From a candidate division FCPU426 bacterium (GTDB lineage Bacteria; Oederibacteriota; Muellerivitia; Muellerivitales; Muellerivitaceae): a stretch of 64,000 nucleotides of DNA. Under the pieces are notes generated by a model, which saw only the letters and a list, made by a program, of their open reading frames with translations, had not been told where the DNA came from and ran no database searches. The translations under genes were made by a program, and so were the position numbers. The stretch is taken from assembly GCA_963847625.1 (NCBI GenBank), contig CAWKAR010000039.1, forward strand, positions 45,244 through 109,243, in the 5' to 3' direction. Below, in pieces: positions 5,154 through 25,507 of the stretch (the first letter of the stretch is position 1; each line of letters begins with the position of its first letter).

Positions 5154-5276
5154 AGCATGAATGGGCCAGCGACCTTCGTAGTAGGCTTTGATCAATAGCA
5201 GCTGATCAAAATAACGCGGGTTGCTCCGTCCTCCACACCCCTTCCGTCCTGCTCTGAGTTCTCCATCTCGAAGAAC

Positions 5277-8581: not shown

Positions 8582-9751
8582 ATGAATCAGATGCATTCAG
8601 GCCGAATTGAGGTTTTGGATTCCTTGCGCGGCGTTGCAGCTATGCAGGTGGTATTCAATCATTTTTTGATCGTGTTTCCTCTTTTTTTTGAAGCGACCCT
8701 CCACCTAGCGTCAAATCAACCTTTGATGGCGAAGTTGATGGTTTATACGCCGCTCCATATCCTATGGGCGGGGCATGAGGCTGTTATCTTCTTTTTCACT
8801 TTGAGCGGATTTGTTTTGTCCTTACCTTATGTGAATAGGAATCCACTTTTTTACCGACCCTACCTGATTAGGAGATTTTGCCGAATTTATATTCCTTTTT
8901 TCACTCTTATTTCTCTCTCCCTTATTTTATATAAGAGGGGTCTAGGTTTTTTTGCGATTCCAGGTGTCAGCTGTTGGACTAACAGTTTTTTTTCTAAAAC
9001 CATCACTTGGCGGGAAATGCTGAAAATCTATACCGGGTTCGACGATATCTACACCTATAACTTGGCTCCCACTGTTTGGAGTCTAAACCACGAGATGCGC
9101 ATCTCAATTGTTTTTCCCTTCTTGGCTAACATGGTGGTGAAATTAAATTGGAGAGAAAATTTGGGAATGGGTTTTTTGTTAGCAGCTCTAGGAGGGGGAT
9201 TGATCAATGAGAAAATATTATCCGCTGGAGAATTGAATAGAACATTTTTCTACACCTCTTTTTTTATCTTTGGGGCCCTTCTGGCGAAACATCGGGATTG
9301 GGTTTTAGGGGCCATTGGGAAATACAATGGCGGCCTAAGAACATTGTTCTTAGCCTCTGCTTTAATCTTGTATAACATTCGCTGGTCGGGATTGGTGGAA
9401 GAAAAATCATCTTTTTCCCCTGTTGGTCATGAAGTTTTCTGCGATTTGTCAGTAGGACTGGCGTCACTTTATTTCATCGGTGCGTCTTTGGGATGGAAGC
9501 TAAATAAAAAGAATTTTGTTCAAGGAACCTTTTTGTGGATTGGGAAAATTTCCTTCAGCCTTTATTTGATCCATCCGTTGATATTATTCATGAGTATTTA
9601 TTATTTTAGGCATTTCTTGCCAATAATCATTAGCGACTTCCTGGGTTTGTCCTTTGCAATATTTGTGGCTTGGCTTTTCTATCGTTGGATAGAATGTCCT
9701 TCCACACAATTGGGTAAAAAACTTTCCAAACATTCCATTTTCACGGGCTAG
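8582..9751 (+). CDS. Acyltransferase family 3 (OafA/NolL-like) integral membrane O-acyltransferase
   Basis: 389 aa, about 10 predicted TM helices, N-terminal LDSLRGVAAMQVVFNHF typical of PF01757. The gene sits in a low-GC island (7956-10545). Confidence 0.65.
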   Translation: MNQMHSGRIEVLDSLRGVAAMQVVFNHFLIVFPLFFEATLHLASNQPLMAKLMVYTPLHILWAGHEAVIFFFTLSGFVLSLPYVNRNPLFYRPYLIRRFCRIYIPFFTLISLSLILYKRGLGFFAIPGVSCWTNSFFSKTITWREMLKIYTGFDDIYTYNLAPTVWSLNHEMRISIVFPFLANMVVKLNWRENLGMGFLLAALGGGLINEKILSAGELNRTFFYTSFFIFGALLAKHRDWVLGAIGKYNGGLRTLFLASALILYNIRWSGLVEEKSSFSPVGHEVFCDLSVGLASLYFIGASLGWKLNKKNFVQGTFLWIGKISFSLYLIHPLILFMSIYYFRHFLPIIISDFLGLSFAIFVAWLFYRWIECPSTQLGKKLSKHSIFTG

Positions 9752-9820
9752 AAAGAAATTCCTAAAACTAAAACCCAATTCATTTATGGGAACCTCTAAA
9801 AATTCATTTAAGCCCTCGCC

Positions 9821-9912
9821 CCTTGAGGGAGAGGGTAGGGTGAGGGGTAAAAAACCTCGCTATTTCCACCCTCATCCCATCCTTCTCCCCTCTAGGGAGA
9901 AGGGGAACGGCA
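9821..9912. repeat. GC-rich imperfect palindromic element (REP/MITE-like) in an AT-rich intergenic region
   Basis: ccctcgccccttgagggagagggtagggtgagggg ... accctcatcccatccttctcccctctagggagaagggg forms two related purine/pyrimidine-skewed arms capable of extensive hairpin pairing. Confidence 0.4.
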
Positions 9913-10545
9913 ATTTATAGAGGTACCCTTATTCAGAAGCAGTTGAAATGCTTAAGGAGGTGAGTGTTCTTTGAATATTCTTGAAAATCTGGATTGTAAT
10001 GATGATAGATGTTTGCCGGCGGGAGAGGCGCAGAAATATTCGCGAGAGAATCTATTGGCATCATGCCCTGGTGGTGTGGCCCATTTCCCAGGCCGAACGC
10101 ATTTCTTTGTGCCATTCTGGACTCACTGTCTCCAGTGATGAACAAGATATGACTCTATGACCGGGTTCCTTTTTAAAACAAGTTTTAGAGCATTCGAGTA
10201 ACCCGATTTTAAAAATAAGGCTAGCATTTATCCTATCTTTCAGACTATGGACAGACCAAATCATTGTTCCATATGCACAATTAGTTGTGGGTAGCACCCC
10301 TAGGTATGCAGTTTGTAGCTTAAAAGGGGTATGGACCCCTGAATAGGTAGAGCATTAACCCCAAAACCCCGGTTGCCCTGCCTGAAATAACGGTTAAAAT
10401 AATTTTGTGCAATAGGACGGGAACCCAGTTGCAAGAAAATTAAACAAATAACATAGGTTTCGATAAATATTTTTACGGAAGATTTACCCGTTTAACCCAG
10501 CTTTTATTGATACAGGAATCTGAAAGGTTGACCCGAAAAACTTGA

Positions 10546-13500
10546 ATGGAAACCAAATTCGTTAAACCCGTACGCTACGGCGACATCATCGAAATCGACA
10601 TCCACTCCCTCGCCTTCGGGGGGGATTCAGTAGGCCGTTACCGTGATTTTGCCATATTTGTCCCGGGTGGGCTCCCTGGCGAGAGGTTGGCCGTAAAGAT
10701 CACCCGGGTCAAGGACCATTTCGCTACGGGTGAGATTGTCAACTTCCTCAAGCGTTCCCCGGACCGCATTGTCCCAGGTTGTCCCGTATTCGAGGAATGC
10801 GGTGGGTGTCAATGGCAGCACCTACACTATTCCCGACAGCTTCAAGCCAAGCGCCAGTTCGTCGTGGATGCTTTTCAAAGAATCGGGCATCTTTCCAATG
10901 TAGTGGTACAGCCCAGTCTGCCTTCGCCCAATCCATACGCTTACCGCAACAAAGCCCTGCCGGTTCTTTCGATGCGGGAGGGTCATTATGTTTCCGGGAT
11001 CTACGAACCCCGTTCCCACCACTTAGTGCCCTACCAGACATGCCCCATTCAGGGAGACGCCGTCAATGACCTGATCCAAAAAGTCCTGAATAAGATCGAT
11101 CGTTCCGGTTTGACGCCCTACCAGGAAAAAAAACACATAGGTTTTTTAAGGCATTTGGCTGTCCGTCAGGGATTGAAAACGGGCGAGATGATCTTGTCCT
11201 TTATCACCCGCGCAGAGGTGCCTGAGGAACGGCTTCAAAAACCCGCCTTGGTACTGGAATCCCTGGACCATGTCCTGCCACGTCTTGCGGCGGAGCTTAT
11301 GGAGGAGATTCCCGGCCTGGTCGGCGTCCTACAAAACATCAATCCTTCCCGCACCAACGCTGTATTCGGCTCCACCACGCGTCTCCTCGTGGGGCGGGAC
11401 CACTATTTCGAGGTTATCGATGACCTCCGGCTGAGAGTCTCTCTGATGTCCTTCCTGCAGGTCAACACTCTTCAGGCGGATATTCTTCACACCGTCGTCA
11501 GGGAGGCATTGGGAGAACCGGCTCACAAGAAAAAATGGGGGATCCTGCTGGATCTTTTCTCCGGCCTCGGCACCCTGGCCTTGGCTGTTTCCCAAAAGGT
11601 TGATTATGTGGTGGGCATCGAGGAATCAGCCCCCGCCGTGGAAGACGCCAAATTCAACGCGACGTTGAACCAACGGGACAACATCGATTTTCTGGAAGGC
11701 GACGTGGGCCGTGTTCTCATGGGTCTCAAGGAAAAAGGATTAACGCAACTGGACGCTGCGATCATGGACCCTCCCCGCAAAGGAATCCTGCCGGAAGTCC
11801 TGGCACGGTTGACGGCTTTCCACCCGGAAAGATTGGTTTATGTATCCTGTGACCCTTCCACGCTGGCTCGGGATCTTTCCCTTTTAACTAAGCACGGCTA
11901 CTCGGCTGATTGGGCCCAGCCTATCGACATGTTTCCCCAGACCTATCACGTTGAAACGGTGGTGAGACTTACCCGGCAAAAACCTCTCTCCCTTGAGACT
12001 ATGACCGGCCTTTCGGAACAAGCGCTGGAACCTTTCCGTCTTCCCAAAACGGAACCTGTAGCCCTCAATATAAAGGGTTCCTTCGAGGCGCTCTGGAAGG
12101 GGTTGGCCCTGGTATTTCAATCCATGGTGGAACTTCTTGCCAAAGGAAAGGTTAAAGTTCGTCTGTTCTTATCGGTTATGCCCTTAGGATTTAAAAAAGT
12201 TTTAAGTGCTGCTAACTTTATTTACCTCCATTCCCTTAAAACGATCCTTTGGGTATTAAAAATAATCCCAATCACATTCCGATTATTCGCTGGTTTGTTT
12301 TGGCACATGAAAAACTCGTACAATAAATTAGTTTCGGAGAAAAAACTCACCCAGGACTACGATGACTTTTCCCCGACTCCAACCGAAATCGCGAGGATGG
12401 AAGAAACCATTACAAAACCGACCCCGATTCTTTCAGAATGGGTTGAAACTCCATTCCGGGAAGAGTGGGAAGAAGAAACCGCGTTACAACCGCCAGAGGG
12501 CCCAGAGGAACCTCTTTCATCTATTCCGGCTTCCGGGGTGGTTTTATCGTCCTCTTCCATCCAAGAATTAGAGAAAAATGAAATTTCAGAGGGAGAGCTT
12601 TCCTCCGTTCCAGAGACCGGACAGGAACCGCTCCCGGAATGGCCTACTCCGCCACCTTTTCCTAAGCCTCTGACGGCACCGCTCTGGGAAAAATGGAAAT
12701 GGCTTTATAGATCCTTTTTTAAGAGGTCCTTATTCCGTTGGACGGTTTTAGCGGTTCTTTTTTTAGGTATCGGCGCTTATTGGGCCAAAGCAACCCTTTC
12801 ACCCTCCCGGCCCAAAAATTGGCTCCAGGCTCCCACTGTTTCCCAGATGATCCCGGACGCAATCGCCGTCATGCCCACCCGAACCTTCCTTCGCTACGAA
12901 ATGGTGCCCTTTGAGGTGAGGGTGAACCCGAAGAACCAGGCTTATTTCTCGGATATACACGCCTCCGTGGAGATTTTCTGTGACGGTGAACCTGTCAATA
13001 TGGTAGACGGCAGGTCCAAGTTGTATTTAAAAAAAGACCAGGCTGGAAAGAAACTCCTGGGTAATTGGCCGATTCCTTATAATCCCAAGGCTGGCACTTA
13101 TATTGCCGAGATAGCCATTACTTCGCCCCAGTGGCAAACCCCCCATACCTTCGAATCCGCCTTCACCATCGCGCCATTGAAACCGCATGGGCTTTATCCG
13201 GGTTATGCCGCCCTTACCATGGAGGGGGGGAAGCAATTAGTCAACGGGGCGATTCCTCCCCTGGACGGGAACGGATCTTCCAATACCTCCAATGCCATCG
13301 ACTGGGCGAAATTTATCGGTGCCAATCTGTTCTGCGATTTAATGGGGCAGACTTCCATTTGGGACCACCTCGTCAAGGCGGATTTTCCATTCAACCGGCT
13401 TGAAATTGAAACAGGCCACCGATACGCCCGCGCCGCACACGCCAAAGGGTTGAAGTTCGCCAGTTACATGACCACCTTCAAGGTGGAAGGCGACGCCTGG

Positions 13501-14691
13501 CAACAGGCCCCTTACGAATTCTCGCTTGGATACGACCCAGACAGTGATGAGGTGATCCAGACCCGCTTCATTTCGCTTGAGGACAAAAAGCGCCGCCAGG
13601 ATGTCATCGATTTTTTAAGAAAAATGGACCAGGAACCCCTTGTCGATATCATCGGGATGGATTACGTAAGGACCGGTTTCGCGGGTTATGAAATGGTGGA
13701 TGAGTTCGTCAAGGATTTGAACGTGCCGGGGCCGATGGATTTTTGGACCATGTCCAAGCAGGACCGCATCCATTGGCTGGCACGCACCGTGGAATTGAAG
13801 GAAAACCCGCAAGTGGTGGCTCTTTTCGAGTGGTGGAGGGCCCACAAGGTGGCGTTAACCCTGAAAGGCATTCTTGATGAGGCGAAGGTTTCCAAACCCG
13901 TCTTCACCTTCACCCTCGGTTGGGAAATGGGACATCAACACGGCCAAGATCCCGCCATGTTCATCGACGCAGGCGTGGCTTTTAACCACATCATGCTTTA
14001 TGAAGGAACCCGGGAGCACATTGAGGTCATGAAACGGCATTGGCCCGTTTATTTATCCCGGGAAAACGGGATGTACGCCATGGGAGAAATGGTTGACTTC
14101 AACTGGGTCCAGAGGACCACCGATCCTCCGGCACCGTTGGAACTTTTTAACCGGCAAAATGAGACTTTCCAAAATTGGTTTCCCGAAAATGCTTCCCTGG
14201 GCATGTTTTGGCACGACCTTTACCGATTGATTTGGGGAATCCGCGGCCCTTACACCAGCATGGAATGGGCCATATCAGGCGGAAAAGCTTTCTCCGCCTT
14301 GCAACACACCGAGGGGCTTTCACCCATCGACGTAACATTGACCGCCCCGCGGGAAGCTCCCGTTGGAGTGCCGGTTCCCTTGAGTGTGGAAATTCGTAAC
14401 CATTCCCCGGAAGATTTGAAAGGGGTGATACTCCACCAACTGGATGCTTCCAAGAATTACCTGGACGAGTTGGCCACCCTGGGGCCTTTTGACCTTCCAG
14501 CTGGAAATATGGTGAAGGTGAAGAGCCTTTTCCTGAATATGCCCAAGGAAATCCATCCCGAGAGAGACAACCGTTACATGGCGGCGGTTATGGTGGAAAG
14601 ACAGGGAGAACCGCTGAGGGTTTTCGATTTCGCCTATATAAAAGGGTTGCCGTTGGGAACTGTTGTTCGGAAGTTGGACACGCCCCAGTGA
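10546..14691 (+). CDS. Fusion ORF. N-terminal 23S rRNA (uracil-5)-methyltransferase RlmD/RumA (TRAM, 4Fe-4S, SAM-MTase), followed by TM segments, an acidic/Pro-rich linker, a second TM, and a ~650-aa extracytoplasmic TIM-barrel-like putative glycoside-hydrolase-like domain
   Basis: Residues 1-480 carry CPVFEECGGCQWQH, DLFSGLGTLALAV, MDPPRKG and VYVSCDPSTLARDL. There is no stop codon through an AT-rich hydrophobic stretch (12100-12360), then RWTVLAVLFLGIGAYWA, then DIIGMDYVRTGFAGYE-type TIM-barrel motifs. Continuous 1381-aa frame. Confidence 0.6.
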   Translation: METKFVKPVRYGDIIEIDIHSLAFGGDSVGRYRDFAIFVPGGLPGERLAVKITRVKDHFATGEIVNFLKRSPDRIVPGCPVFEECGGCQWQHLHYSRQLQAKRQFVVDAFQRIGHLSNVVVQPSLPSPNPYAYRNKALPVLSMREGHYVSGIYEPRSHHLVPYQTCPIQGDAVNDLIQKVLNKIDRSGLTPYQEKKHIGFLRHLAVRQGLKTGEMILSFITRAEVPEERLQKPALVLESLDHVLPRLAAELMEEIPGLVGVLQNINPSRTNAVFGSTTRLLVGRDHYFEVIDDLRLRVSLMSFLQVNTLQADILHTVVREALGEPAHKKKWGILLDLFSGLGTLALAVSQKVDYVVGIEESAPAVEDAKFNATLNQRDNIDFLEGDVGRVLMGLKEKGLTQLDAAIMDPPRKGILPEVLARLTAFHPERLVYVSCDPSTLARDLSLLTKHGYSADWAQPIDMFPQTYHVETVVRLTRQKPLSLETMTGLSEQALEPFRLPKTEPVALNIKGSFEALWKGLALVFQSMVELLAKGKVKVRLFLSVMPLGFKKVLSAANFIYLHSLKTILWVLKIIPITFRLFAGLFWHMKNSYNKLVSEKKLTQDYDDFSPTPTEIARMEETITKPTPILSEWVETPFREEWEEETALQPPEGPEEPLSSIPASGVVLSSSSIQELEKNEISEGELSSVPETGQEPLPEWPTPPPFPKPLTAPLWEKWKWLYRSFFKRSLFRWTVLAVLFLGIGAYWAKATLSPSRPKNWLQAPTVSQMIPDAIAVMPTRTFLRYEMVPFEVRVNPKNQAYFSDIHASVEIFCDGEPVNMVDGRSKLYLKKDQAGKKLLGNWPIPYNPKAGTYIAEIAITSPQWQTPHTFESAFTIAPLKPHGLYPGYAALTMEGGKQLVNGAIPPLDGNGSSNTSNAIDWAKFIGANLFCDLMGQTSIWDHLVKADFPFNRLEIETGHRYARAAHAKGLKFASYMTTFKVEGDAWQQAPYEFSLGYDPDSDEVIQTRFISLEDKKRRQDVIDFLRKMDQEPLVDIIGMDYVRTGFAGYEMVDEFVKDLNVPGPMDFWTMSKQDRIHWLARTVELKENPQVVALFEWWRAHKVALTLKGILDEAKVSKPVFTFTLGWEMGHQHGQDPAMFIDAGVAFNHIMLYEGTREHIEVMKRHWPVYLSRENGMYAMGEMVDFNWVQRTTDPPAPLELFNRQNETFQNWFPENASLGMFWHDLYRLIWGIRGPYTSMEWAISGGKAFSALQHTEGLSPIDVTLTAPREAPVGVPVPLSVEIRNHSPEDLKGVILHQLDASKNYLDELATLGPFDLPAGNMVKVKSLFLNMPKEIHPERDNRYMAAVMVERQGEPLRVFDFAYIKGLPLGTVVRKLDTPQ

Positions 14692-15051
14692 AATGTAATT
14701 TTGAAAAATAGGGACATCAGAATAGTTTTAGAGCATCTTAAATTGTTTAATCAATTGCCTTGTTCGATATTTCCTTGTTATGTCAAATCTGGAGTTTTAA
14801 GGATGTTTCCGAAGGCCCGATTTGACGCATTTCACGGCGGTTCGGAGTTATTTTTCCAATCAATCAGTATAAATGGAAAAGTAAAATTCAATGCCGGGCT
14901 TGTTTAACGGTAATAAACCCAATGAAAAGGGTTTTAAATAAAAGGTTCCCGGAATATGCGTTCTTTTGAATTTTCTTAAAAAAAGATTCCAGCTTTTCCA
15001 AGCTTTTTAGTAAAATACCGGCGTTTTCCCTCACCATTCTTTTCACGAAGG

Positions 15052-15825
15052 GTGTTTATGGCCTCCTCCAAATTTCTAGCCGCCTGTGGAATCTTGGGGT
15101 TTATTCTTTTGGCCGGATGCGGGGCAGTTTTTGTAAATGAAGGCTCAAAGAACGCTTCCTTGGCCCACGGCTTGGCCAATCCCGAAAAAAACACAATAAA
15201 AGTAAACGTCACTAAAGATGCTTCTGTCATTTCTAATTTCGACGACGGCTCCAATAATGGGAACCCTAAACTTTTCGGCGACGGTTCGGGAACATGGGCT
15301 ACCATGACCTGGGCCGGAAACGCGGTCAACAGCAATTTCGTGGTAAAAGGGGGTGCCAACGGCACCAAGATGGCCGCCCATGTGTTCGGCAGTCTGACCG
15401 ACAAGGGTGATGCTTCCTACCCCGAATTTGACCTGCAATTCAATTTCAAGGGAAAAGACTTGTATGACGCCAGTAATTTCGCGGGTATTAAGTTTTATTA
15501 CAAATGTCCCGCGGCCGACCAAGCCCTCAAACGCCGTTTCAATATTGCCACCGCGCCCACCCTTCCTATGTCTGACGGTGGAACCTGTGAGTCGGCTTGT
15601 TACAACCATTACGGCGCCAATTTGAAGCCCATTTCAGACTGGACGGCGTTGTCCTATAATTTCAGCGATTTAACCAGGTTACCGGGTTGGGGCTCGCCAG
15701 TGGCGCCTCCCGAGTTGACTGAACACTTGAAGGAATTCATCTATATTAAGTGGGGTCATTCCGCGGACAACGCGGCTGGGACTTATACCATCGACTATTG
15801 GGTGGATGAGGTGGAGTTTTTCTGA
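15052..15825 (+). CDS. CBM-like lipoprotein (first gene of the OMP operon)
   Basis: Lipobox LLAGC after an N-terminal signal sequence. SNFDDGS near the N-terminus and YTIDYWVDEVEFF at the C-terminus (carbohydrate-binding-module-like jelly-roll signature). Confidence 0.6.
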   Translation: MFMASSKFLAACGILGFILLAGCGAVFVNEGSKNASLAHGLANPEKNTIKVNVTKDASVISNFDDGSNNGNPKLFGDGSGTWATMTWAGNAVNSNFVVKGGANGTKMAAHVFGSLTDKGDASYPEFDLQFNFKGKDLYDASNFAGIKFYYKCPAADQALKRRFNIATAPTLPMSDGGTCESACYNHYGANLKPISDWTALSYNFSDLTRLPGWGSPVAPPELTEHLKEFIYIKWGHSADNAAGTYTIDYWVDEVEFF

Positions 15826-15873
15826 TTGTTGTTTCTATAAGTTTTTGCCCTAGTTTGACTTTAGGAGTTTTTT

Positions 15874-18800
15874 TTGAAATTTAGCTTTAAAATTTTTATA
15901 ACGTCCTTTTTCTTAAGCCTTTTTTCTTTGGCCACCGGAGCGGGTTTCCTTTTGGCTGATCCAATGGAAAACGTGGGACCCGACCAGAGTCTTTACCAAA
16001 GGGTGAAGAAGCTAGCGGATTTAGGCCTGTTAGACCCCCAGGACCAAGCGGTCCTGGATCAGGGGAAAATAGTCACCCGCCTTGAGTTGGCTTTCTATAC
16101 CGAGAAAGCCGCCGCCAGGATTGAGGCGCCTCAATTGGCATTGCCGAGTCCTACTCCTGAAGTTGTCGCACCGGCTCCGACGGAAGCGCCATTGCAAATG
16201 CCTCCTATTATTTCTGCTCCAGAATTGCCTGCTCCAGCACAACCGGCAACGGCGTTACCCTTGCCTGAAAACACCCCTGTTTCCGCTCAGCCGGCTTTAG
16301 AACTTCCAGCCCCGTCATTGCCCCCGCCGGAAAATACACCAGTTCCACCTTCGGTATTACCGGCACCCTTGCCTGAAAACACCCCGGTCTCCGCACAGCC
16401 GGCTTTAGAGCTTCCAGCACCAGCATTGCCCCCGCCGGAAAATACCCCGGCTCCGCCTCCGGCTTTACCGGCACCAGCGCCACCTTTGCCCGAAAACACT
16501 CCTGTCCCCGCCCCACCGGCTTTAGAGCTTCCAGCTCCTTCATTGCCCCCGCCGGGAAATACCCCGGTTCCGCCTCCGGCTTTACCCGAGCCGGCATTAC
16601 CTTTGCCGGAAAGCACTCCGGTTCCAGCTCTTCCAACACCTTCAACTCCTTCTCCCGTTGTTACTCCTGTTACCACGCCCATAGTCACTTCTGTTCCCAC
16701 ACCGGCTCCCATACTCCCGGAAGCCACCGGTGCCTTGAGAAATGAAATCCAAGATCTGCTGAAACAACTTCACGCGGAGGCGGTTTTTCTTCGCTCGCGT
16801 TTAAGTCTAGATGATCCCCGCATTAAAGCCCAGGAAGACGAGTTGGATAATCTCAAAAAAGTACAAGATGAAGTGGATACCACCTGGAAAAAGGCCGACA
16901 AGTCGGCGGGCATCCCCAATTTCAACACCAACATCAATACCCGATTCGAAAACATCAATGTTTCCGGAAGCCTTGCCACCGAGAGTGTCTCAAAGGCCTT
17001 GGAAGAAATCTGGTGCGGGATGTACTCGGACCTGGGGGGCAAAGGGGCTCTCTCCCTTGGGGTGGGCGGGATCTTGCCTTATGACAACGCCTCTGCCAAC
17101 TATGACTTGTGGGGTGTGTACGGCACAGGACCCGTATCCCTTTATATCGGCAACCCCAGCTGCACTTTGGACCTGTATGGAGACTTGGGCAAGTGGGACA
17201 CCACCTTTGCGGTTGAAGCCTACCAACCCGACACTACTTACGGCGATTTCAGCCGAGGTTACGCCAATAATTCTCTTAAAAGGTTCGAGAATCCTTGGAA
17301 CATTAAGAGCTTCAACGACGATAAGAACGCAAAGAACTGGGACGATTTCATGAGTAACATCAGCTACGTTCCAAGCTATTCCCCGACGGCCGGCAATGTG
17401 CAATCCACCAGCGACCGGGTTATTGATGGTATTTATGCGGTAGGGAAAAATGTGCCTTGGCTAGCCCCGGGAGGACGCATGTGGTTTCTGGCGGGCCGGA
17501 TGGGTGAAACCACAACCCAAAGCCTTCGCTGGGAGGAGGGCGCCAAAATCGACCAGCCTTGGGCCCACAATCTTATTCGGACCGCTATTTCCACCGAGTG
17601 GGTGAACGACAATTTCGGCGTAAGCAACCTGCCCATGACACCCCAGCTAGATATGAAGGATTACTCGGCCGACATCCATTTGAACCTGACCCCCGTCTTA
17701 TTCGATATCGAAGGCGGGTTTTCGCAATTCTACACCGGCAGCGTTTATCCCGGTCCTTCCTATATTCAATCGGGCCTTCTTCAGCCTGATTCCGATGTCA
17801 TTCAGGCGGGCGCGGGCCAAGCCTCCCTGGCTTTTTATCCTCTCACTTTTTACTACTTTGCTATCAGCGAGAATTACGCAGACTTCATGAGCAAAGTCAC
17901 CATGAGCGGGTTCAATTTCTTCCATCACGGGCTTTATTTCAATCCCAGCGATTTCCAAGATGTTTATGGCGCCATTGGGGAAGTAGATAACCTTCAATCC
18001 GACCGGTACGGTTGGAGGGCCAACTTGGGATGGGACGGCCGGGAACAGGATTGGATGAAGAACTGGCCTAGTTTCCTGGATACCTTTATCATCAACTTTG
18101 ACTTGTCCGAAAAGAAAGAATATGTCGCCGAGCAGGGGCAAGAGGGTTGTTTCATGGTGGAACCCACCCAAATGCTAAGCTTTTACTATCCGGACGATGA
18201 GGGTTTGTGGGGTTTGGACCTGTGGGGAAATTACGCCCCCAACGTGAATCCTTTAAGACAGACTTACATCAACAATATTGAACAGCAACGCAACGATGGG
18301 GACATCGTCAACGACGACGTGCGGTACCAGTTTAGGATGACCAGCGAGAGGCTTCCCCTAATTATGCCTATGTATGTTCAAAGTGTAGTGGTGAGCGGTG
18401 GCATCCCCGTTACAACCTATAGTCTAAATCCTGTAACAAATGGACAACCGCCTGCGACTAATAACGGGCATAATATATATGCCAATATCACCGATCTTAA
18501 AACGTACGACTACATAACCTTATCCGCCAAGCTAAAAATGGACAAGTGGTTCGGCTTGAAGACTCCCATGGACGGATTCTTCTTCGTGACCGACAACAAA
18601 GTTTCGGGTGTTGCCTCCAACGCCACCACGGTCCTTCCCACCAGCACTACTATCAACAACATAACACCCACCATCACCGTTAACATCCCCAATCTTTTTG
18701 AACAGTTGGTCTACGATGGATCCATCATGATTAACGCGGTCAAGAATGTGGATTTGATGGGGGACATAGGGGTCGAAACCTGGAAGTCGCAATATACCTA

Positions 18801-18975
18801 CCCCCAGGTGGATTATCGCACTAACGATTATGGACTAGGGCTTGCCTACGACATTCCTTGGGGCGGGGCCAAGTTGGAATTCCGCTATAAGTACCTTGAA
18901 TTCCACGACAATTACGTTCCCGGGAACAATTATTCCGGAAACCAGTATTTCTGCAAAGTTAAGTTTTTGTTTTAA
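15874..18975 (+). CDS. Outer-membrane protein paralog 1 (OmpM/Slp-like): signal peptide, one SLH-like motif, Pro-rich tandem-repeat linker, coiled coil, C-terminal beta-barrel
   Basis: TTG start with AGGAG RBS. Signal peptide. YQRVKKLADLGLLDP...IVTRLELAFYTEKAA is SLH-like. 3.5 copies of a ~36-aa Pro-rich unit. Heptad-like EIQDLLKQLHAEAVFLRSRL...LDNLKKVQDEV. About 650 aa beta-rich region ending KVKFLF. Confidence 0.65.
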   Translation: MKFSFKIFITSFFLSLFSLATGAGFLLADPMENVGPDQSLYQRVKKLADLGLLDPQDQAVLDQGKIVTRLELAFYTEKAAARIEAPQLALPSPTPEVVAPAPTEAPLQMPPIISAPELPAPAQPATALPLPENTPVSAQPALELPAPSLPPPENTPVPPSVLPAPLPENTPVSAQPALELPAPALPPPENTPAPPPALPAPAPPLPENTPVPAPPALELPAPSLPPPGNTPVPPPALPEPALPLPESTPVPALPTPSTPSPVVTPVTTPIVTSVPTPAPILPEATGALRNEIQDLLKQLHAEAVFLRSRLSLDDPRIKAQEDELDNLKKVQDEVDTTWKKADKSAGIPNFNTNINTRFENINVSGSLATESVSKALEEIWCGMYSDLGGKGALSLGVGGILPYDNASANYDLWGVYGTGPVSLYIGNPSCTLDLYGDLGKWDTTFAVEAYQPDTTYGDFSRGYANNSLKRFENPWNIKSFNDDKNAKNWDDFMSNISYVPSYSPTAGNVQSTSDRVIDGIYAVGKNVPWLAPGGRMWFLAGRMGETTTQSLRWEEGAKIDQPWAHNLIRTAISTEWVNDNFGVSNLPMTPQLDMKDYSADIHLNLTPVLFDIEGGFSQFYTGSVYPGPSYIQSGLLQPDSDVIQAGAGQASLAFYPLTFYYFAISENYADFMSKVTMSGFNFFHHGLYFNPSDFQDVYGAIGEVDNLQSDRYGWRANLGWDGREQDWMKNWPSFLDTFIINFDLSEKKEYVAEQGQEGCFMVEPTQMLSFYYPDDEGLWGLDLWGNYAPNVNPLRQTYINNIEQQRNDGDIVNDDVRYQFRMTSERLPLIMPMYVQSVVVSGGIPVTTYSLNPVTNGQPPATNNGHNIYANITDLKTYDYITLSAKLKMDKWFGLKTPMDGFFFVTDNKVSGVASNATTVLPTSTTINNITPTITVNIPNLFEQLVYDGSIMINAVKNVDLMGDIGVETWKSQYTYPQVDYRTNDYGLGLAYDIPWGGAKLEFRYKYLEFHDNYVPGNNYSGNQYFCKVKFLF
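16252..16650 (+). repeat. Intragenic tandem repeat (~108-nt unit, ~3.5 copies) encoding the Pro-rich linker LPENTPVSAQPALELPAPSLPPPENTPVPPxxLPAP
   Basis: Near-identical nucleotide units are visible at 16258, 16375, 16490 and a partial copy at 16600. Confidence 0.8.
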
Positions 18976-18992
18976 CCTTTTGAAAAGGATTA

Positions 18993-21275
18993 TTGGATAA
19001 GAAAGAAATGAAAAAAGGCCTTCAAATTCTTATAGGGTTTCTTCTCTTAAGCCCGGCATTGCCTGCCCGGGCTGATCATGGGCGTTTGGCCACGAATATC
19101 CGGGATTCCTGGATTAATCTGGGCGTGGCTGAATTGGTATCATCAGGATTGGCACAGGACCCGGGTAAGCCCATCAACCAATTGACTAACCTCGAAGTGG
19201 CTCAATTGACGGCCGAGGCCTCCCAAAAATACCTGGCCCAAGCCGATCTCAACCTTCCGGCCCCGCCTTCCGCCGATGAGCCGGCCCTGCCGCCGGAACC
19301 TCCTGCGTCCCTGGCCGCACCCCCGCCCCTGTCGGGAATGGATTCCACGGCAACCCCACAAACCACCCTTCCCAGCAAGAGCATGACGGATCTTGTAGCG
19401 GAATTCCGGAATGAGCTGAGCGCCATGGGGGTTGATGTGGATAAATTGGAACAAAGAATAAATGATTCCAAGGCCCGAAATGAGGTTTTCGCCGCACTCC
19501 AACAAAAATACCTAAAACGAACCGGAACGGATTTGGGAGGGTTCTCCAGGGGTTTTGTCTACGACTACCGGGGATTCGGCACCAATGCGGTCTATCCTGC
19601 CATGGAATATAACGCCGCCATGTTCATGGAGTGGGATTTGAAAAGCATCCCCATCCCCACCGTTTTGTTTGATGCGCGCATGAGGCTGTGGCGTTCCATG
19701 GGCATGTATTACCAGGACCCCTTCGAGCCTGACTATCAACTCAGGTGGATTTCCTTAACGGATTACAATGATTTCGCCAGTTTCACCGCCGGAGACTTTT
19801 TCAAAAGCTATACACCCCTGACCCTTTGGAATTACGAAGTGCCCGTTTACACCTTGGTGGAACCGGCATCCTTCCACCGGGTTCGTAAGGATACGGAAGA
19901 ACTGGCTTATGTGGACCATGGCTCGGACTGGCACATGAGGGGAATCCAGGCTTCCACTTCCTTTGATTGGCCCAAGGAAATGTTCCTCAGCGGGTTTGGT
20001 TTGCAGGCCATGGTGGGAACCATGATGAACGGGGGAGGTTTCAGTTTCAGCAGTTATTACGCCGGAACCCAGGGGTCCATCAGCCTTTTCAACGATTTCT
20101 TGACGGTCAAGGGCACCGGATTGCGTCTTTGGGACGATATCAATTCAGCAAATCCAAACATCGACCAAAACCTTTATATTCCATCCGCCTTTCCGAAGGA
20201 ATACCAAATCGGAAGCCTGACTGGTTCCGTCTCATTCATTTTCAGCGACAAAGCAGACTTGGTCGGGACCGTTGAGGGTGCTTTCAGCCAATATTATGAC
20301 GACCTGTACGACACTTCGAGGGAATTCCAGGATTGGGCAATACTGGGCAACGCCTCCTTGGATATTCAGGGGGTCCACTTCACCGGCAAGTACCTCAATG
20401 TCGGCCCGAATTTTTATTCCCCTGGGGCTCAAACCAACCGGTATACCCCGGCGGCCGGCTTTCAAGGCTACTGGAGCACGACCATGAACGGGGTGGATGA
20501 CGCCTTGCCGGGTTACTTGGACGACTTCGTGTTCCAAAACGTCAGTCGGCCCTCTTTCGCTCCCTACGACCGTTTATCCGAGAATTTTCTTCCTTATGGG
20601 GATTCCTCGCCAGACCGGAAAGGCATCGTGTTGGGCTTTTCGGGCGAATTGGGGGATAACAAGTGGCTGAAGCCGCAAGCTTCTTATCTTCTCAACGCCC
20701 AGGAAATCCAACCCAATTATGTTTTACAGAGTAGCAACAGCATCATCCCTGTGGACAGCAACACCACCACGACGGTGGCCCGTGTTTTTGGCGGCTATGA
20801 GGGGGCCTTGACTCTGGATTTCGCGAAAGCCTTAAACATGAAAGGGAAGACCTATGACCTCCAATTCGATTACAAACACCAGACCACGGATTTAGGCGTG
20901 GGAGCGAGCCCCTTTACAGTTAATACTATTATCGCGGCCGTGGATTTCAACATACCCCTTCATTTCGCATCCCGCTTGGTTTGGTCCGCATCCTTGGAAC
21001 AGGCCCAAGCCAGCGGCAGCGAGTACGTATTGTCAGGCGTTGGTAGTCCACCGACCTTGGCAAATTATGCCTTCTATCTGGACCCTCAGAACCAATTTAT
21101 CTATCAGTCTTTGAACATCACCCGGGACATTTTGGCCTTGGGGGCCATGTACCCCATCAGCGACAAAATCGATCTTCGATGCGATTGGTTTTTCGTGGAT
21201 TACAAGTGGACTGACAACCCTGACTTCGACCGCAGGGACCAAATTTGGAGAATGACGTATGAAGCGCATTTCTAA
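18993..21275 (+). CDS. Outer-membrane protein paralog 2 (OmpM/Slp-like)
   Basis: Signal peptide (alternative ATG at 19008). SLH-like WINLGVAELVSSGLAQDP...LTNLEVAQLTAEA. Pro-rich linker, coiled-coil segment, and a beta-rich C-terminal domain homologous to the paralogs (shared Y..D.NDF..F.AGDF..SYTPLTLWN; NVGPNFYSPGAQT). Ends TYEAHF. Confidence 0.65.
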   Translation: MDKKEMKKGLQILIGFLLLSPALPARADHGRLATNIRDSWINLGVAELVSSGLAQDPGKPINQLTNLEVAQLTAEASQKYLAQADLNLPAPPSADEPALPPEPPASLAAPPPLSGMDSTATPQTTLPSKSMTDLVAEFRNELSAMGVDVDKLEQRINDSKARNEVFAALQQKYLKRTGTDLGGFSRGFVYDYRGFGTNAVYPAMEYNAAMFMEWDLKSIPIPTVLFDARMRLWRSMGMYYQDPFEPDYQLRWISLTDYNDFASFTAGDFFKSYTPLTLWNYEVPVYTLVEPASFHRVRKDTEELAYVDHGSDWHMRGIQASTSFDWPKEMFLSGFGLQAMVGTMMNGGGFSFSSYYAGTQGSISLFNDFLTVKGTGLRLWDDINSANPNIDQNLYIPSAFPKEYQIGSLTGSVSFIFSDKADLVGTVEGAFSQYYDDLYDTSREFQDWAILGNASLDIQGVHFTGKYLNVGPNFYSPGAQTNRYTPAAGFQGYWSTTMNGVDDALPGYLDDFVFQNVSRPSFAPYDRLSENFLPYGDSSPDRKGIVLGFSGELGDNKWLKPQASYLLNAQEIQPNYVLQSSNSIIPVDSNTTTTVARVFGGYEGALTLDFAKALNMKGKTYDLQFDYKHQTTDLGVGASPFTVNTIIAAVDFNIPLHFASRLVWSASLEQAQASGSEYVLSGVGSPPTLANYAFYLDPQNQFIYQSLNITRDILALGAMYPISDKIDLRCDWFFVDYKWTDNPDFDRRDQIWRMTYEAHF

Positions 21276-23658
21276 AATAATCCTCTTTTCATTCATAGGC
21301 TTTTTCCTGGCTCAGGTGAAAAGTGTGGCTTTGGCGGGCGACAACCTTTTCACGGTTGTCCCGGCCAATGACTCGACCTATGAGAGCCTCCAGCAACTGG
21401 AACAAGCCGGGTTGCTGACTTCCGGATCTTCCCGCGCGCCCCTTACGCGTTTTGAGGTTGCCGGGCTTATCATGAAAGCCCAGAAAAAATACGACGAGAT
21501 CGTCGTAGCCGATTCCGATTTGGATCTTCCGGCCCCTTCGGATATGACAATCACCCCACCTATTTCCACTCCCACTCCTGCTGCGGCTGCACCTGCGGCG
21601 GCTGTTCCCGCTAAAACGGCAGTTCCCACGCTCTCACCCACGCCTGATGAGGCGGTTGTGCTGGCACAGGCATTGAAAAGCCTGCACAACCTGAAGGAGG
21701 CCTATCAATATGAACTCGACCGCGTAAAAGGCGATGTGAAAATGACGGAAGACCAAGAAACCACCGTGGAAAACTCACAATATGCCCTTTGGAAACGTCT
21801 CCAGGGAATCACTGAGTACCCCACCATCACCTGGCATGGGCTGGGGAGAGCTTTTGGTATTTCGCGGCAATACTGGGGCGATCCGGCATATTCCTCCTTG
21901 GGTTCAGCCGAGCGGGAAGGTTTCGGTTACCTGGATTTTCAGCCCATAGGGGTGGTTTCTAAACAAGTTCGGTGGGACGCGGTTTTGAGGTATCAAACGG
22001 CTTTTGAGTCGAACAACTATCCCGGCATCGATTGGTTGTTGTTCCGCAGAGCGACCATGGAATTCAATCCTTCCTGGTTTTCCGCTACAGTGGGGGATTT
22101 TGAGGAATCCTATACGCCTTTGACCCTTTGGAACCGAAACAACCTGGATCTGCGTTACATGCCCGAAATGTACCAGCGCGCCGACGATACTTACAAATAT
22201 GAAAATTACCTGAACCAAGAGCCGGATTGGCCGTTCCGGGGCGCTCGCGTGGGAACCGCACTATTGTGGCCCGAATCGGATCTTATGGACCAGTTTAAGG
22301 TTTCCGTCATGACGGATATGATCCGGAATGCTTTCGACGATAACAATAAGGTTGGTGTTTTTTACGGTTTCGACCAATTCACCGGCTGGATTGTCGGAAC
22401 CAACGGCGAGATCAAACTAAAAAGGTGGTACTTAGGCGGCGGAACCTCCCTCCAACTGGCATTGGACGCCTATGGACTGTTATTGGATGATCCCCTGAAC
22501 ACCAACAAGCCTGGAGCTCCCTATTCTCCCTATAACCCGGATACTTGGGGCCATCAATACCGGATTTCCAGTCTCAAGCCTTCCGTAGACGCCGGGGTTG
22601 GAGGGGATACGTCCATCGGGATGGTTTGGGAGTGGGCTTCCGTCACATATGTGGACGACAAAATGGATTCATTGAAGAATATGGAGGATTATGCGGTGAT
22701 GGGCGGACCCTATTTGCGGTTCGGCAAATCAAAAATATCATTCAATTACCTGAACGTCGGCCCCTATTTTTATTCTCCCCTGGCCCAAACCCGCCAGGAC
22801 GAGGTTTCAGCCCCTACGGCAGCCTCGCCGGTGGCATCCGGATTCTTGCCGACTTCCGAGCTCTTTACACCCGCCTTGCGAAGCCGGTTTTTCCTCAGCG
22901 ATGTGCCCCGGCCAGGTGAAATTTACAGTTTCTACGACCGGACCCAGGATAATACCTTCCCTTATGGATTGGGGACTCCCAACCGTCAGGGAACTGGTTT
23001 TGAAGTGGACGTTAAAACCCTTCCTAAGGATTCATTGAAAATCCTTGGATCGGTCTATTTTGTACAGGAAATCAGTGGTAACCTTGTTGTGGACAGCGCT
23101 GGAACGGGTTATGTGCCTGTGGACGCACCGCCATTTGAGACGGTTCCCGTCCGTAATTTCACCTATGTGAATATTGGATCTTCATTCAATTTGGGACCCG
23201 TCATCGGAATGGGCCGGGATTTGGTACTGGGGACCAATGTCCGTTACGAAAAAACCACCAGTTCGATTGGGACCTTAACCAGTATTTGGGTTTTAGGGGG
23301 GGTGAAAATCGGGGTTTTGGATGGATGGGATGTTTCCGCATCCTACGGGAGTCAAGCGGTCACCGGAACGGAAGCTGGTTATGTTTACGCTGATTCCACC
23401 GGGGTTTCGCACCAAACCTTTTTGGCCCGTTATCCCTATCTTTTCGACAATTCCGATTTGGGCTATTACCAACCATTTAGTGTCAACGGTACCAACCAGA
23501 GCGTCCAGCTGTCCAGCGAAGTCCGGACAAGCCGGAATACGAGGTTTTACGCGGATTACGGCTTCACCAGTGGCGATGTCGTACCCTATGTGGGGACTGC
23601 CAACACGGGGACCTTGCATAACGAGTTTATGGAGTTGACTTATGAAATCCAATTTTAA
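21259..23658 (+). CDS. Outer-membrane protein paralog 3 (OmpM/Slp-like)
   Basis: 17-nt overlap with the upstream gene. Signal peptide. SLH-like YESLQQLEQAGLLTS...LTRFEVAGLIMKA. Ala/Pro-rich linker, coiled coil, beta-rich domain with the same conserved blocks (VGDFEESYTPLTLWN; NVGPYFYSPLAQT). Ends LTYEIQF. Confidence 0.65.
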   Translation: MKRISKIILFSFIGFFLAQVKSVALAGDNLFTVVPANDSTYESLQQLEQAGLLTSGSSRAPLTRFEVAGLIMKAQKKYDEIVVADSDLDLPAPSDMTITPPISTPTPAAAAPAAAVPAKTAVPTLSPTPDEAVVLAQALKSLHNLKEAYQYELDRVKGDVKMTEDQETTVENSQYALWKRLQGITEYPTITWHGLGRAFGISRQYWGDPAYSSLGSAEREGFGYLDFQPIGVVSKQVRWDAVLRYQTAFESNNYPGIDWLLFRRATMEFNPSWFSATVGDFEESYTPLTLWNRNNLDLRYMPEMYQRADDTYKYENYLNQEPDWPFRGARVGTALLWPESDLMDQFKVSVMTDMIRNAFDDNNKVGVFYGFDQFTGWIVGTNGEIKLKRWYLGGGTSLQLALDAYGLLLDDPLNTNKPGAPYSPYNPDTWGHQYRISSLKPSVDAGVGGDTSIGMVWEWASVTYVDDKMDSLKNMEDYAVMGGPYLRFGKSKISFNYLNVGPYFYSPLAQTRQDEVSAPTAASPVASGFLPTSELFTPALRSRFFLSDVPRPGEIYSFYDRTQDNTFPYGLGTPNRQGTGFEVDVKTLPKDSLKILGSVYFVQEISGNLVVDSAGTGYVPVDAPPFETVPVRNFTYVNIGSSFNLGPVIGMGRDLVLGTNVRYEKTTSSIGTLTSIWVLGGVKIGVLDGWDVSASYGSQAVTGTEAGYVYADSTGVSHQTFLARYPYLFDNSDLGYYQPFSVNGTNQSVQLSSEVRTSRNTRFYADYGFTSGDVVPYVGTANTGTLHNEFMELTYEIQF

Positions 23659-24550
23659 CCGGCAAAAAGAAACCAGAATCCCTGTCCGGAAGACCCTTTC
23701 GGTCCGAATAGCAATCGGTTTTGCTATCGCTTTAATTCCATTAATCGCAGGTTTTTTGGGCTGTAAAAACAGCGTGCCTTCTTATGGAACCTATCCTGAC
23801 CCTGGTTCCACCTTGGACTGGAGCACGGTGGCTAATTTTGATTCCAATTCCGCCACCGTCAACCCGAACCTTTTTGAATCGAGTAATCCCCCCACCTACA
23901 AGTTGAAAACGGTGGGTGGCGCTGTTACGGCGGTAAACGACTGGTCGGCTTACATTACTATATCTTCGAACCCACCCACTGTGCAAAACAACACCGTTGT
24001 CCTCGGCGGGGCTACCACTTTGACGATCCCATTTGCACCCTGGTTGGACAGTCCCGGAGCGGCCGGCACATCTCATGCTTTCCACGTGACCGGCGCGCTC
24101 ATAGACCCGGGAGATTATTCAAGCTTTGACTCGGTGAAATTGCAAGCTCAGATGGAGGGAGGCGGGTTTTATGACGCCAGTTTTTTCACGGGGGTCAAGT
24201 ACTACCTGAAGGTGGCAAGCGACGACAGCACGCTTTACCGTTTTTTCAGCATCCCGGTTTACCAGACAACCAGCCCCGTTGGGGGCGGTGGATGCATGGG
24301 CGGGCCGAGGCTTTGCGACGATTCTTTCGCGGCGGATTTCAGCAGCGGCACCGGCGGCCAATGGAAACTATTCAGCTATAAATTCTCTGATCTGCATCAA
24401 TTGCAACCCGGTGTCATCACGAATCCGCCCACTTTGAGCGGGGTCAACCTTCAGCAGATATTTTTCTTGGAATGGGACGAGGGCAGGAACAATCAACCCG
24501 GTGTTTCATATTTTGATTTTTGGGTGGACGACATCGAGTTCTTTAAGTAA
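23642..24550 (+). CDS. CBM-like lipoprotein
   Basis: 17-nt overlap with OMP3. Lipobox IAGFLGC. VANFDSNS ... FFTGVKYYLK ... WKLFSYKFSDL ... FDFWVDDIEFFK. Confidence 0.6.
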   Translation: MKSNFNRQKETRIPVRKTLSVRIAIGFAIALIPLIAGFLGCKNSVPSYGTYPDPGSTLDWSTVANFDSNSATVNPNLFESSNPPTYKLKTVGGAVTAVNDWSAYITISSNPPTVQNNTVVLGGATTLTIPFAPWLDSPGAAGTSHAFHVTGALIDPGDYSSFDSVKLQAQMEGGGFYDASFFTGVKYYLKVASDDSTLYRFFSIPVYQTTSPVGGGGCMGGPRLCDDSFAADFSSGTGGQWKLFSYKFSDLHQLQPGVITNPPTLSGVNLQQIFFLEWDEGRNNQPGVSYFDFWVDDIEFFK

Positions 24551-24589
24551 CGGGGAGTCCGACATCAGGTTTGACCCCGGGAGGTTATC

Positions 24590-25507
24590 ATGAAAGGCAT
24601 ATGGCTTCGGACATCGTTGGTTTTATTTTCCGCGGTATTTACCGCGGGAGTATTGTGGCTTTCCCAGGGCTGCAATTATCAAATACCGTCCTTGGCGGCG
24701 GCAGTGGCCACTCCCCAGGCCACGAACGTGGTCAGTAATTTCACAAACGGTTCCTTGAAGATGAACCCTTCGTTAAAGGGTGCTGACGGCGGTTATTTCC
24801 AGCAGATCACCTATGGGGGAGCGCCGGGGCTCACCAACATGATCAACAACAGCCTCCAGCCCAATATCCTGGAGGCGAATCCCGGGAACGGAAGCAGCGT
24901 ATACGCGGTCCATCTTTACGGGGCGCAGTACGACTATTGCGCGACAGGCCTCGGTTCGTCCACTTACCCCGCCTTCTTTCTTTACGGTTTCTTGAGCAAC
25001 GATCCAGTGAAGCATTATCTCTTCGACCTGAGTCCATTTACAGGCGTCAAGTTCGATATCAATATCAAGATCGATGATGGAGTGGTTCTCGGCACTCAAA
25101 ACACCACCAAAACCCAGGATGGTGCTTATCAAAGAATGTTCGCCATCGGCGTGGCCCAACAAACCCCTCCCACCAACGATCCGGGAGGCATTTGCCCTCC
25201 CTCCTTCAGCTCCAATTGCTATGACTATTATTGGGGGGATAGTAGTGCCTTTCCCGGCCCCGGGTCGGGATGGAGTCCGGTCAGTTTCCTTTTTTCCAAT
25301 TTGACAACTTCGACTTGGGGCGTAAACCTTGGTGCCTTGACTGACCCTTGCAACGGCACAATTAACTATTCCGGAGTTTCTCTCCCTTGTCCATCCAGCG
25401 GTAGTATGCTCACACAGGCCCTTTTTCTCATCTGGAAATTCGGAGACAACGGCGCCTGCCACAACGTTTATGTGGATTTTTGGGTGGATAACGTCGCGTT
25501 TTATTGA
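24590..25507 (+). CDS. CBM-like lipoprotein
   Basis: Signal peptide with lipobox LSQGC. VSNFTNGS ... FTGVKFDINIK ... WSPVSFLFSNL ... YVDFWVDNVAFY. Multiple Cys pairs. Confidence 0.6.
   Translation: MKGIWLRTSLVLFSAVFTAGVLWLSQGCNYQIPSLAAAVATPQATNVVSNFTNGSLKMNPSLKGADGGYFQQITYGGAPGLTNMINNSLQPNILEANPGNGSSVYAVHLYGAQYDYCATGLGSSTYPAFFLYGFLSNDPVKHYLFDLSPFTGVKFDINIKIDDGVVLGTQNTTKTQDGAYQRMFAIGVAQQTPPTNDPGGICPPSFSSNCYDYYWGDSSAFPGPGSGWSPVSFLFSNLTTSTWGVNLGALTDPCNGTINYSGVSLPCPSSGSMLTQALFLIWKFGDNGACHNVYVDFWVDNVAFY

Follow-up and report, generated by a model that had tools for sequence, protein, structure and literature searches.

We analysed a 64,000-nucleotide window of contig CAWKAR010000039.1, part of a metagenome-assembled genome (MAG) from candidate division FCPU426, in which six consecutive genes encode a lipoprotein (LP1), three outer-membrane proteins (OMP1, OMP2 and OMP3) and two further lipoproteins (LP2 and LP3). 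On the evidence of MAG sequence and two predicted structures (OMP3 and LP1), we consider it reasonably probable that this block, a cassette specific to FCPU426 and Firestonebacteria, combines OMPs of the OmpM/SlpA type with lipoproteins of the carbohydrate-binding-module (CBM) type for the capture and uptake of glycans, with tethering of the outer membrane to the cell wall as a probable second function. The initial annotation had read the block as a glycan-capture and outer-membrane import system, a reading supported by accessory copies of the cassette that lie beside carbohydrate-active enzymes (CAZymes) and by the CBM11-like fold of LP1. Pfam and NCBIfam scans, which included the SLH, CBM_11, CIA30, porin and TonB families, matched none of the six proteins.

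The periplasmic parts of the three OMPs are related to those of OmpM. A profile of the SLH domain and stalk, built from 28 genuine OmpM N termini that are all annotated PF00395, was aligned by hhalign with OMP1 (93.7%, E 1.9e-7), OMP2 (95.8%, E 6.5e-9) and OMP3 (93.1%, E 3.1e-7). The OMP2 alignment continues through the stalk, where OmpM LADEFSNELNSLGVRVSRLEDRV is placed opposite OMP2 LVAEFRNELSAMGVDVDKLEQRI. When profiles of the OMP orthologs were searched against the PDB (177,635 sequences), Veillonella OmpM structures were recovered over the SLH domain and stalk as the top or near-top match, with E-values of 1e-4 for OMP1, 1e-4 for OMP2 and 7e-3 for OMP3. These matches include 8bys, 8bym and 8bz2; OMP1 matched 8bys and 8bz2 (E 1e-4) and OMP2 matched 8bys (E 1e-4). 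OMP1 also matches 10aw_A, a '50 kDa outer membrane protein', over its coiled coil and the start of its C-terminal domain (E 8e-5). The SLH-like motif that the initial annotation picked out in each OMP therefore reflects true homology and not chance. PF00395 itself gave no match for the three window OMPs even at E≤1, and matched 0 of 32 OMP1 orthologs; since its threshold is not reached, the N termini are divergent SLH relatives.

The same module unites the three OMPs with one another. Over the N-terminal domain and coiled coil, OMP1 aligns with OMP2 and OMP3 at an hhalign probability of 97% (E 3e-11 and 1e-10), and the stalks of OMP1 and OMP2 are mutually alignable. The proposed order of signal peptide, SLH domain, linker and coiled coil is borne out by a helix in the OMP3 model and, for the OMP1 and OMP2 stalks, by alignment. 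Linker length among orthologs spans 3–211 residues in OMP1, 0–58 in OMP2 and 19–135 in OMP3, and the range in OMP1 indicates that this linker expands and contracts quickly.

The ligand residues of the SLH domain are W34, G58 and R64 of the TRYE motif in Veillonella parvula OmpM1 (PMC10628300). We mapped these VpOmpM1 positions onto the window proteins through the hhalign alignments. OMP1 presents Ser, Gly and Arg, OMP2 presents Trp, Pro and Asn, and OMP3 presents Ser, Ser and Arg, each set being conserved within its family; the Asn that replaces the TRxE arginine in OMP2 (N66) is invariant. The full Trp/Gly/Arg set is found in none of the three chains and is complete only across the trio.

The C-terminal domain of OMP3 is predicted to be an outer-membrane barrel. 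The AlphaFold2 model, computed from a 45-sequence alignment (pLDDT 75.8, pTM 0.69), has 22 strands joined by short periplasmic turns and long extracellular loops. Its most conserved parts are the extracellular loops L3 (residues 284–323; SYTPLTLWNRNN), which contains a helix, and L7 (residues 501–575; YDRTQDNTFPYGxxTPNRxG). Loops 3 and 7 are those that constrict the pore of OmpM1 (PMC10628300). Fold comparison of the OMP3 model returned outer-membrane barrels only, as generic matches with low TM-scores of 0.2–0.34. OMP2 and OMP3 are full-length paralogs (25% identity, BLASTP E 1e-36) whose barrels align at an hhalign probability of 100% (E 8e-62). The barrel of 16 or more strands that had been expected is thus a 22-stranded one in the OMP3 model and is assigned to OMP2 by homology. 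As had also been proposed, the OMPs end in Phe as a beta-signal: the residue closes 32 of 32 OMP1, 45 of 45 OMP3 and 30 of 33 OMP2 orthologs, the other three ending in Tyr.

The C-terminal domain of OMP1 is of a different kind. Three paralogous barrels were considered and rejected, because the OMP1 domain (~690 residues), aligned by BLASTP and by global and local hhalign, gave an hhalign probability of 0.2% against the OMP2 and OMP3 barrels and a blank BLASTP result. The initial annotation's claim of three paralogs holds for the periplasmic module and for the C-terminal domains of OMP2 and OMP3, and fails for that of OMP1. An exhaustive phmmer search of 1.84e9 representatives with the OMP1 domain returned only 31 orthologs or fragments and no remote family. 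An ortholog-by-ortholog Pfam scan yielded nothing useful beyond matches to several TPR repeat families in 2 of the 32 orthologs (best E 1.7e-7); these suggest either a TPR insertion in the periplasmic part of some OMP1 lineages or over-extended starts of the open reading frames (ORFs). The domain has a canonical C-terminal hairpin and a composition like that of OMP2 and OMP3. A home-made score for amphipathic strands gave no separation of OMP1 from verified barrels and was set aside as evidence.

The three lipoproteins are mutually paralogous by BLASTP (LP1–LP2, E 2e-27 with 31% identity; LP1–LP3, E 4e-17; LP2–LP3, E 4e-12) and carry the lipoboxes LLAGC, FLGC and SQGC, respectively. Under a strict rule, a signal peptide followed by Cys is present in at least 97 of 113 ORFs of the LP family, and most of the others visibly contain xEGC; C23 of LP1 is at least 90% conserved. 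CBM-like beta-sandwiches had been foreseen, and the predicted structure of LP1 is indeed all-beta and of CBM11 type over residues ~50–257. Its jelly-roll superposes on that of CBM11 (PDB 1v0a), which is clearly the best fold match (22% identity), with CIA30 second and SGBP-B structures also among the matches. The likeness came from fold comparison alone: LP1, LP2 and LP3 all fall below the Pfam CBM_11 and CIA30 thresholds, a member-by-member Pfam scan of the LP family gave nothing useful (1 of 49 touches CIA30, E 0.043), and an LP profile had zero matches among PDB sequences. Going by the LP1 model, the lipoproteins are predicted to be CBM11/CIA30-fold beta-sandwiches on flexible tethers.

LP1 is the best-conserved protein of the cassette, with 50–84% identity between loci against 25–48% for LP2. 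The LP genes 3' of OMP3 vary in sequence and number from 0 to 3 per locus. Lipoprotein tethers are usually variable, yet residues 23–33 of LP1 (window positions 15118–15150), CGAVFVNEGSK right after the lipobox Cys, are nearly invariant in orthologs. This segment could serve in sorting or surface export, or as a peptide by which LP1 docks on one of the barrels.

All six ORFs lie on the forward strand at exactly the positions of the initial annotation (Table 1). An independent gene call on a Logan contig carrying an identical OMP3 found the same six genes but began LP1, OMP1 and OMP2 slightly later; the true start of LP1 is probably the ATG at 15058. The two 17-nt overlaps noted earlier are both present and share one design, in which the downstream ATG falls inside the T-Y-E of an upstream TYExxF tail that ends at the stop codon. 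This design indicates that the junctions are built for translational coupling. The OMP2/OMP3 junction is kept in orthologous loci and, by locus coordinates, the OMP3/LP2 overlap is 17 nt in nearly all loci. The remaining gaps reported for the block are 48, 17, 39 and 59 nt, and the sole long non-coding gap within or beside it is the stretch that precedes LP1. A scan for consensus promoters and terminators did not rise above shuffled-sequence expectation and no promoter was assigned, so operon status is judged only from gene spacing and conservation. We also considered an origin from a mobile element or phage and dropped it, since the locus is syntenic across the phylum and has an unremarkable base composition.

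Table 1. Features of the six-gene block, in window nucleotides and in residues of the encoded protein
Feature	Nucleotides	Residues	Strand	Remarks
Likely promoter region (inferred)	14692..15051		+	360-nt AT-rich intergenic stretch before LP1
LP1	15052..15825		+	257 aa, lipoprotein
OMP1	15874..18975		+	1033 aa
OMP1 SLH-like domain	15979-16119	~36-82	+	signal peptide before, Pro-rich linker after
OMP1 Pro-rich linker repeat	16257..16586		+	108 nt x 3 in tandem; TRF, 84% matches, score 420
OMP1 coiled coil	16723-16893	~284-340	+	
OMP1 orphan C-terminal domain	16906-18972	345-1033	+	ends ...KVKFLF, canonical beta-signal
OMP2	18993..21275		+	760 aa
OMP2 SLH-like domain	19092-19232	~34-80	+	Trp kept; Arg of TRxE replaced by invariant Asn
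OMP2 coiled coil	19353-19517	~121-175	+	short linker before
OMP2 barrel		178-760	+	homologous to that of OMP3
OMP2/OMP3 overlap	21259..21275		+	17 nt; OMP3 ATG within OMP2 T-Y-E codons; GGAG 8 nt upstream
OMP3	21259..23658		+	799 aa
OMP3 SLH-like helical domain	21355-21519	33-87	+	AlphaFold2 model
OMP3 disordered linker		83-131	+	AlphaFold2 model
OMP3 55-residue helix	21649-21816	131-186	+	AlphaFold2 model
OMP3 outer-membrane barrel		189-798	+	22 strands; AlphaFold2 model
OMP3/LP2 overlap	23642..23658		+	17 nt; identical GGAG-N8-ATG-in-TYE design
LP2	23642..24550		+	302 aa, lipoprotein, variable downstream class
LP3	24590..25507		+	305 aa, lipoprotein, variable downstream class

To our knowledge, FCPU426 is known solely from surveys and MAGs. 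One paper links a 16S cluster of FCPU426 to the cellulose-binding Goldbacteria (PMC7031533). The databases contain 77 relatives of OMP3, none of them annotated. When one genome per GTDB species was scanned, 49 cassette loci were found, nearly all of them in FCPU426 MAGs from peat, bog and soil, with one in a Firestonebacteria MAG. The block was expected to recur in the lineage's other genomes, and it does so as a constant core: every locus with enough flank has the order LP–OMP1–OMP2–OMP3 followed by the downstream LP genes, and in none of these is an OMP missing or permuted. Pairwise identities between loci correlate strongly across components (r 0.87–0.92 among the OMPs and 0.76–0.82 with LP1), which indicates that the cassette duplicated and diverged as a block.

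The loci fall into two classes. Primary loci (~20–22), one per genome, place the cassette between an RlmD fusion gene and LepA, LepB, HemW, HrcA, GrpE and DnaK; the class spans Firestonebacteria (L043) and deep branches (L044 and L047), and the window's cassette belongs to it. Accessory loci are 1–3 extra copies elsewhere in genomes that also hold a primary copy, as in MFD01231.bin.1.41 (primary L002; accessory L005, L013 and L035). The OMP1, OMP2 and OMP3 frames are fragmented in two accessory loci, L045 (MFD04780.bin.2.20, 4848–12221) and L049 (8896–13486), which are either decaying pseudogene cassettes or the product of long-read frameshift errors.

The glycan context is found at the accessory loci. 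At least seven distinct locus types occur, and the recurrent families flanking the loci were identified by Pfam scans. Among the glycoside hydrolases (GHs), GH44 lies immediately upstream of the cassette in six loci, GH2 directly downstream in L013, the alpha-L-fucosidase GH29 directly downstream in L015, and the alpha-glucuronidase GH67 in L049. Other flanking proteins are a GH42-like protein, a SASA carbohydrate esterase, an F5/8-type-C galactose-binding protein, a sugar ABC solute-binding protein, a galactokinase, an NDP-sugar transferase, and LacI and AraC regulators. A polysaccharide utilisation locus (PUL) is defined by such a layout: a repeated binding and transport cassette next to variable CAZymes and a regulator. 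The window's own primary cassette adjoins no CAZyme, and no glycoside hydrolase was found among the ~30 proteins of the window that were scanned. Two window genes encode domain types also found beside accessory cassettes of other genomes, namely an 811-aa F5/8-type-C (galactose-binding-like) protein at 39375–41810 (+) and a LacI-family regulator at 6016–7044 (+).

Under the glycan-uptake reading, the SLH motifs would trimerise and bind peptidoglycan or a secondary cell-wall polymer, as in OmpM/SlpA. Lipoproteins on the outer leaflet would bind fragments of beta-glucan or hemicellulose freed by the neighbouring enzymes, and these fragments would diffuse through the large barrels, gated by the conserved loops L3 and L7, without TonB energy. 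ABC systems with periplasmic binding proteins would then complete uptake. The primary copy would act as a constitutive tether and general channel, and the accessory copies as regulated, substrate-specific versions of it.

Whether the three OMPs assemble together bears on this mechanism. We regard it as nearly an even bet that they form one hetero-oligomer, most simply a 1:1:1 heterotrimer with one coiled coil and one three-SLH module. This is favoured weakly because no OMP has been lost, the junctions are built for coupling and the ligand residues are split among the proteins. S-layer proteins such as P. alvei SpaA have three tandem SLH repeats that are likewise non-equivalent, one of them without Arg. 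The E. coli porins OmpC, OmpF and PhoE are able to form mixed trimers. A hetero-oligomer sits poorly with the unrelated and larger C-terminal domain of OMP1 and with linker lengths that differ widely, and all solved OmpM/SlpA proteins are homotrimeric (PMC10628300, PMC9388160). A bolder version, which we hold to be doubtful, makes the heterotrimer obligate, so that the three-repeat SLH module of S-layer proteins is rebuilt in trans, and has the CBM11-like surface lipoproteins docked on the complex. Each subunit would then give one degenerate SLH domain, one strand of the stalk and one large barrel (two of 22 strands and one of a new type), and the whole would be a third, TonB-independent kind of PUL beside SusCD and the Gram-positive ABC PULs, derived from the ancestral tether, repurposed in a deep-branching diderm phylum.

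The strongest alternative is that the OMPs are three independent homotrimeric OmpM-like porins, co-regulated only, and that the lipoproteins are separate surface glycan binders. It is plausible, though the balance tips slightly against it. Every characterised OmpM/SlpA protein is a homotrimer (PMC10628300, PMC9388160), Veillonella too has tandem ompM paralogs (PMC10628300), and the unrelated, larger OMP1 domain and unequal linkers would make a symmetric barrel trimer awkward. Independent homotrimers do not explain, however, why no OMP gene has been lost or reordered over 49 loci and several ancient block duplications, nor the 17-nt overlaps. OMP1 and OMP3 are also without the Trp, and because OMP2 has Asn for the TRxE Arg, every SLH groove of an OMP2 homotrimer would be without arginine.

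A second alternative dispenses with nutrient capture altogether. The cassette would be a structural module of the envelope, in which the OMPs are tethers and general porins and the lipoproteins bind glycans that belong to the cell itself (secondary cell-wall polymer, peptidoglycan or lipopolysaccharide (LPS)) or aid assembly as CIA30 does for complex I. We judge this unlikely, but several observations favour it. Each genome has a single primary copy, set in a constant housekeeping neighbourhood all the way from Firestonebacteria to deep FCPU426 branches. In diderm Terrabacteria the principal tether is OmpM (PMC10628300, PMC9388160). Among structural matches of LP1, CIA30 ranks second, and the high conservation of LP1 and of its post-Cys segment suggests a fixed protein partner. 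What a structural module leaves unexplained is the presence of 1–3 extra complete cassettes beside GH44, GH2, GH29, GH67, an esterase, solute-binding proteins and LacI/AraC regulators, together with downstream lipoproteins that vary in sequence and number, and CBM11 is clearly the best fold match of LP1 at 22% identity. An export or display platform, whose barrels secrete or anchor polysaccharide or the adjacent GHs while the CBM lipoproteins hold the cell on insoluble substrate in the manner of a cellulosome anchor, is very improbable, as the neighbours are catabolic or uptake proteins (GHs, solute-binding proteins, galactokinase, LacI/AraC) and not glycosyltransferases or secretion ATPases, and the barrel fold matches are generic (TM-scores 0.2–0.34).

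At least 20 loci, spread over the phylum, have the RlmD fusion gene directly upstream of their primary cassette. In the window (10546–14691, +) this gene is a single ORF in which an RlmD 23S rRNA methyltransferase (residues 1–477; TIGR00479, E 2e-117) is followed by ~900 residues comprising a low-complexity stretch, a hydrophobic segment (residues 566–586) and a highly conserved domain of ~640 residues. The extension matched nothing in Pfam or the PDB, and a 20-sequence profile of it fared no better. It is odd for a cytoplasmic enzyme of rRNA to be fused to what is probably a membrane or extracytoplasmic domain, and the constant position beside the envelope cassette may reflect a functional link between the two.

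Other window genes bear on the type of envelope. A 1579-aa classical autotransporter (15–4754, +) has an Autotransporter beta-domain (E 4e-51) and PATR repeats, and is independent evidence of a BAM-type outer membrane. A GT9 heptosyltransferase of the LPS inner-core type (38161–39054, −) and a GT4 glycosyltransferase (44979–46181, +) fit an outer membrane that contains LPS. Because the window holds both the autotransporter and the GT9 heptosyltransferase, the organism is taken to be a diderm with LPS. The DNA polymerase III alpha subunit encoded at 48180–51842 (+) combines a PolC-type N-terminal domain (PF11490) with a PHP domain. Replicases of the PolC kind are typical of Firmicutes-type lineages, a point relevant to the placing of this diderm phylum relative to Terrabacteria. 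Two patches, 8001–10000 (0.39) and 52001–54000 (0.43), have a GC content below the ~0.51 of the window and may represent surface-modification genes gained by horizontal transfer; the first contains a gene for an Acyl_transf_3 membrane acyltransferase (8582–9751).

These results matter for two fields. OmpM/SlpA connectors are regarded as the ancestral connection of outer membrane to wall, and have hitherto been known only as homotrimers of one protein. In the FCPU426 lineage the connector is split into three fixed genes, barrels are enlarged to a predicted 22 strands and CBM-type lipoproteins are added, and the whole cassette was then copied into loci with differing sets of glycoside hydrolases and regulators. 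If glycan uptake is indeed its function, PUL-like import of glycans across the outer membrane arose independently of SusCD and without TonB, and the LP–OMP1–OMP2–OMP3 core would be a sequence marker from which the substrates used by uncultured FCPU426 and Firestonebacteria in the carbon turnover of peat and soil could be predicted. The division of the SLH residues among three proteins bears directly on whether SLH grooves can assemble from different polypeptides. Such a system would surprise those who study outer-membrane tethering and PULs alike, and its predictions are clear and testable.

Among known systems the closest is OmpM (V. parvula OmpM1; PDB 8bys, 8bym and 8bz2), which has a dual role as tether and porin and occurs in Veillonella as tandem paralogs (PMC10628300). 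It shares with the cassette OMPs a signal peptide, a single SLH domain, a stalk, a terminal Phe, the tandem arrangement and, in OMP2 and OMP3, a C-terminal barrel, although detectable homology is limited to the SLH domain and stalk. With a homologous periplasmic module and a predicted barrel in OMP3 and OMP2, the OmpM/Slp architecture named in the initial annotation is well founded. The OmpM barrel has 16 strands, however, whereas the OMP3 model has 22, and the barrels are without sequence similarity. The cassette OMPs have a disordered, Pro-rich linker (3–211 residues) between SLH domain and stalk, fall below PF00395 and lack the full Trp/Gly/Arg set per chain. OmpM is a homotrimer, whereas the cassette has three non-interchangeable OMP types in fixed order, plus lipoproteins. 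SlpA/Slp of Deinococcus-Thermus (PDB 7zgx and 7zgy) is homotrimeric, its stalk is very long and its barrel has 28–30 strands; associated CBM lipoproteins or CAZyme loci are not described for it. DcaP of Acinetobacter (6eus) and the '50 kDa outer membrane protein' (10aw) are coiled-coil porins with no SLH domain, smaller barrels and no lipoprotein operon. CBM11 of Clostridium thermocellum Lic26A-Cel5E (PDB 1v0a) is a 170-aa module of an enzyme, whereas LP1 is a free-standing lipoprotein of 257 aa that has, relative to CBM11 and CIA30, extra insertions and an invariant pair of Cys residues.

The SusC/SusD PULs of Bacteroidota resemble the cassette in organisation. Both are repeated within a genome beside differing GH families and a regulator, and both have CBM-like beta-sandwich lipoproteins. 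In each, a conserved component is accompanied by additional binding lipoproteins that vary. The parts differ: the cassette barrels carry SLH and coiled-coil periplasmic modules, and uptake through them would be passive. No plug, TonB box, or TonB_dep_Rec or Plug Pfam match indicative of a SusC-type transporter was found in the cassette, TonB-dependent transporter barrels match the OMP3 model only as generic 22-stranded barrels, and there is no helical TPR lipoprotein of SusD type, LP1 being an all-beta sandwich. The description of the block as analogous to Sus but made of unrelated parts thus agrees with the CAZyme and regulator layout at accessory loci and with the absence of SusC and SusD features. 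In a literature search that covered mostly papers outside subscription journals, we found no published account of an OmpM-type trio with CBM lipoproteins, and none of OmpM in Firestonebacteria, of SLH porin heterotrimers or of OmpM/SLH proteins with polysaccharide utilisation. Within the literature searched, the combination and its gene arrangement are new, and they are built from a known OmpM-type connector and a PUL-style organisation.

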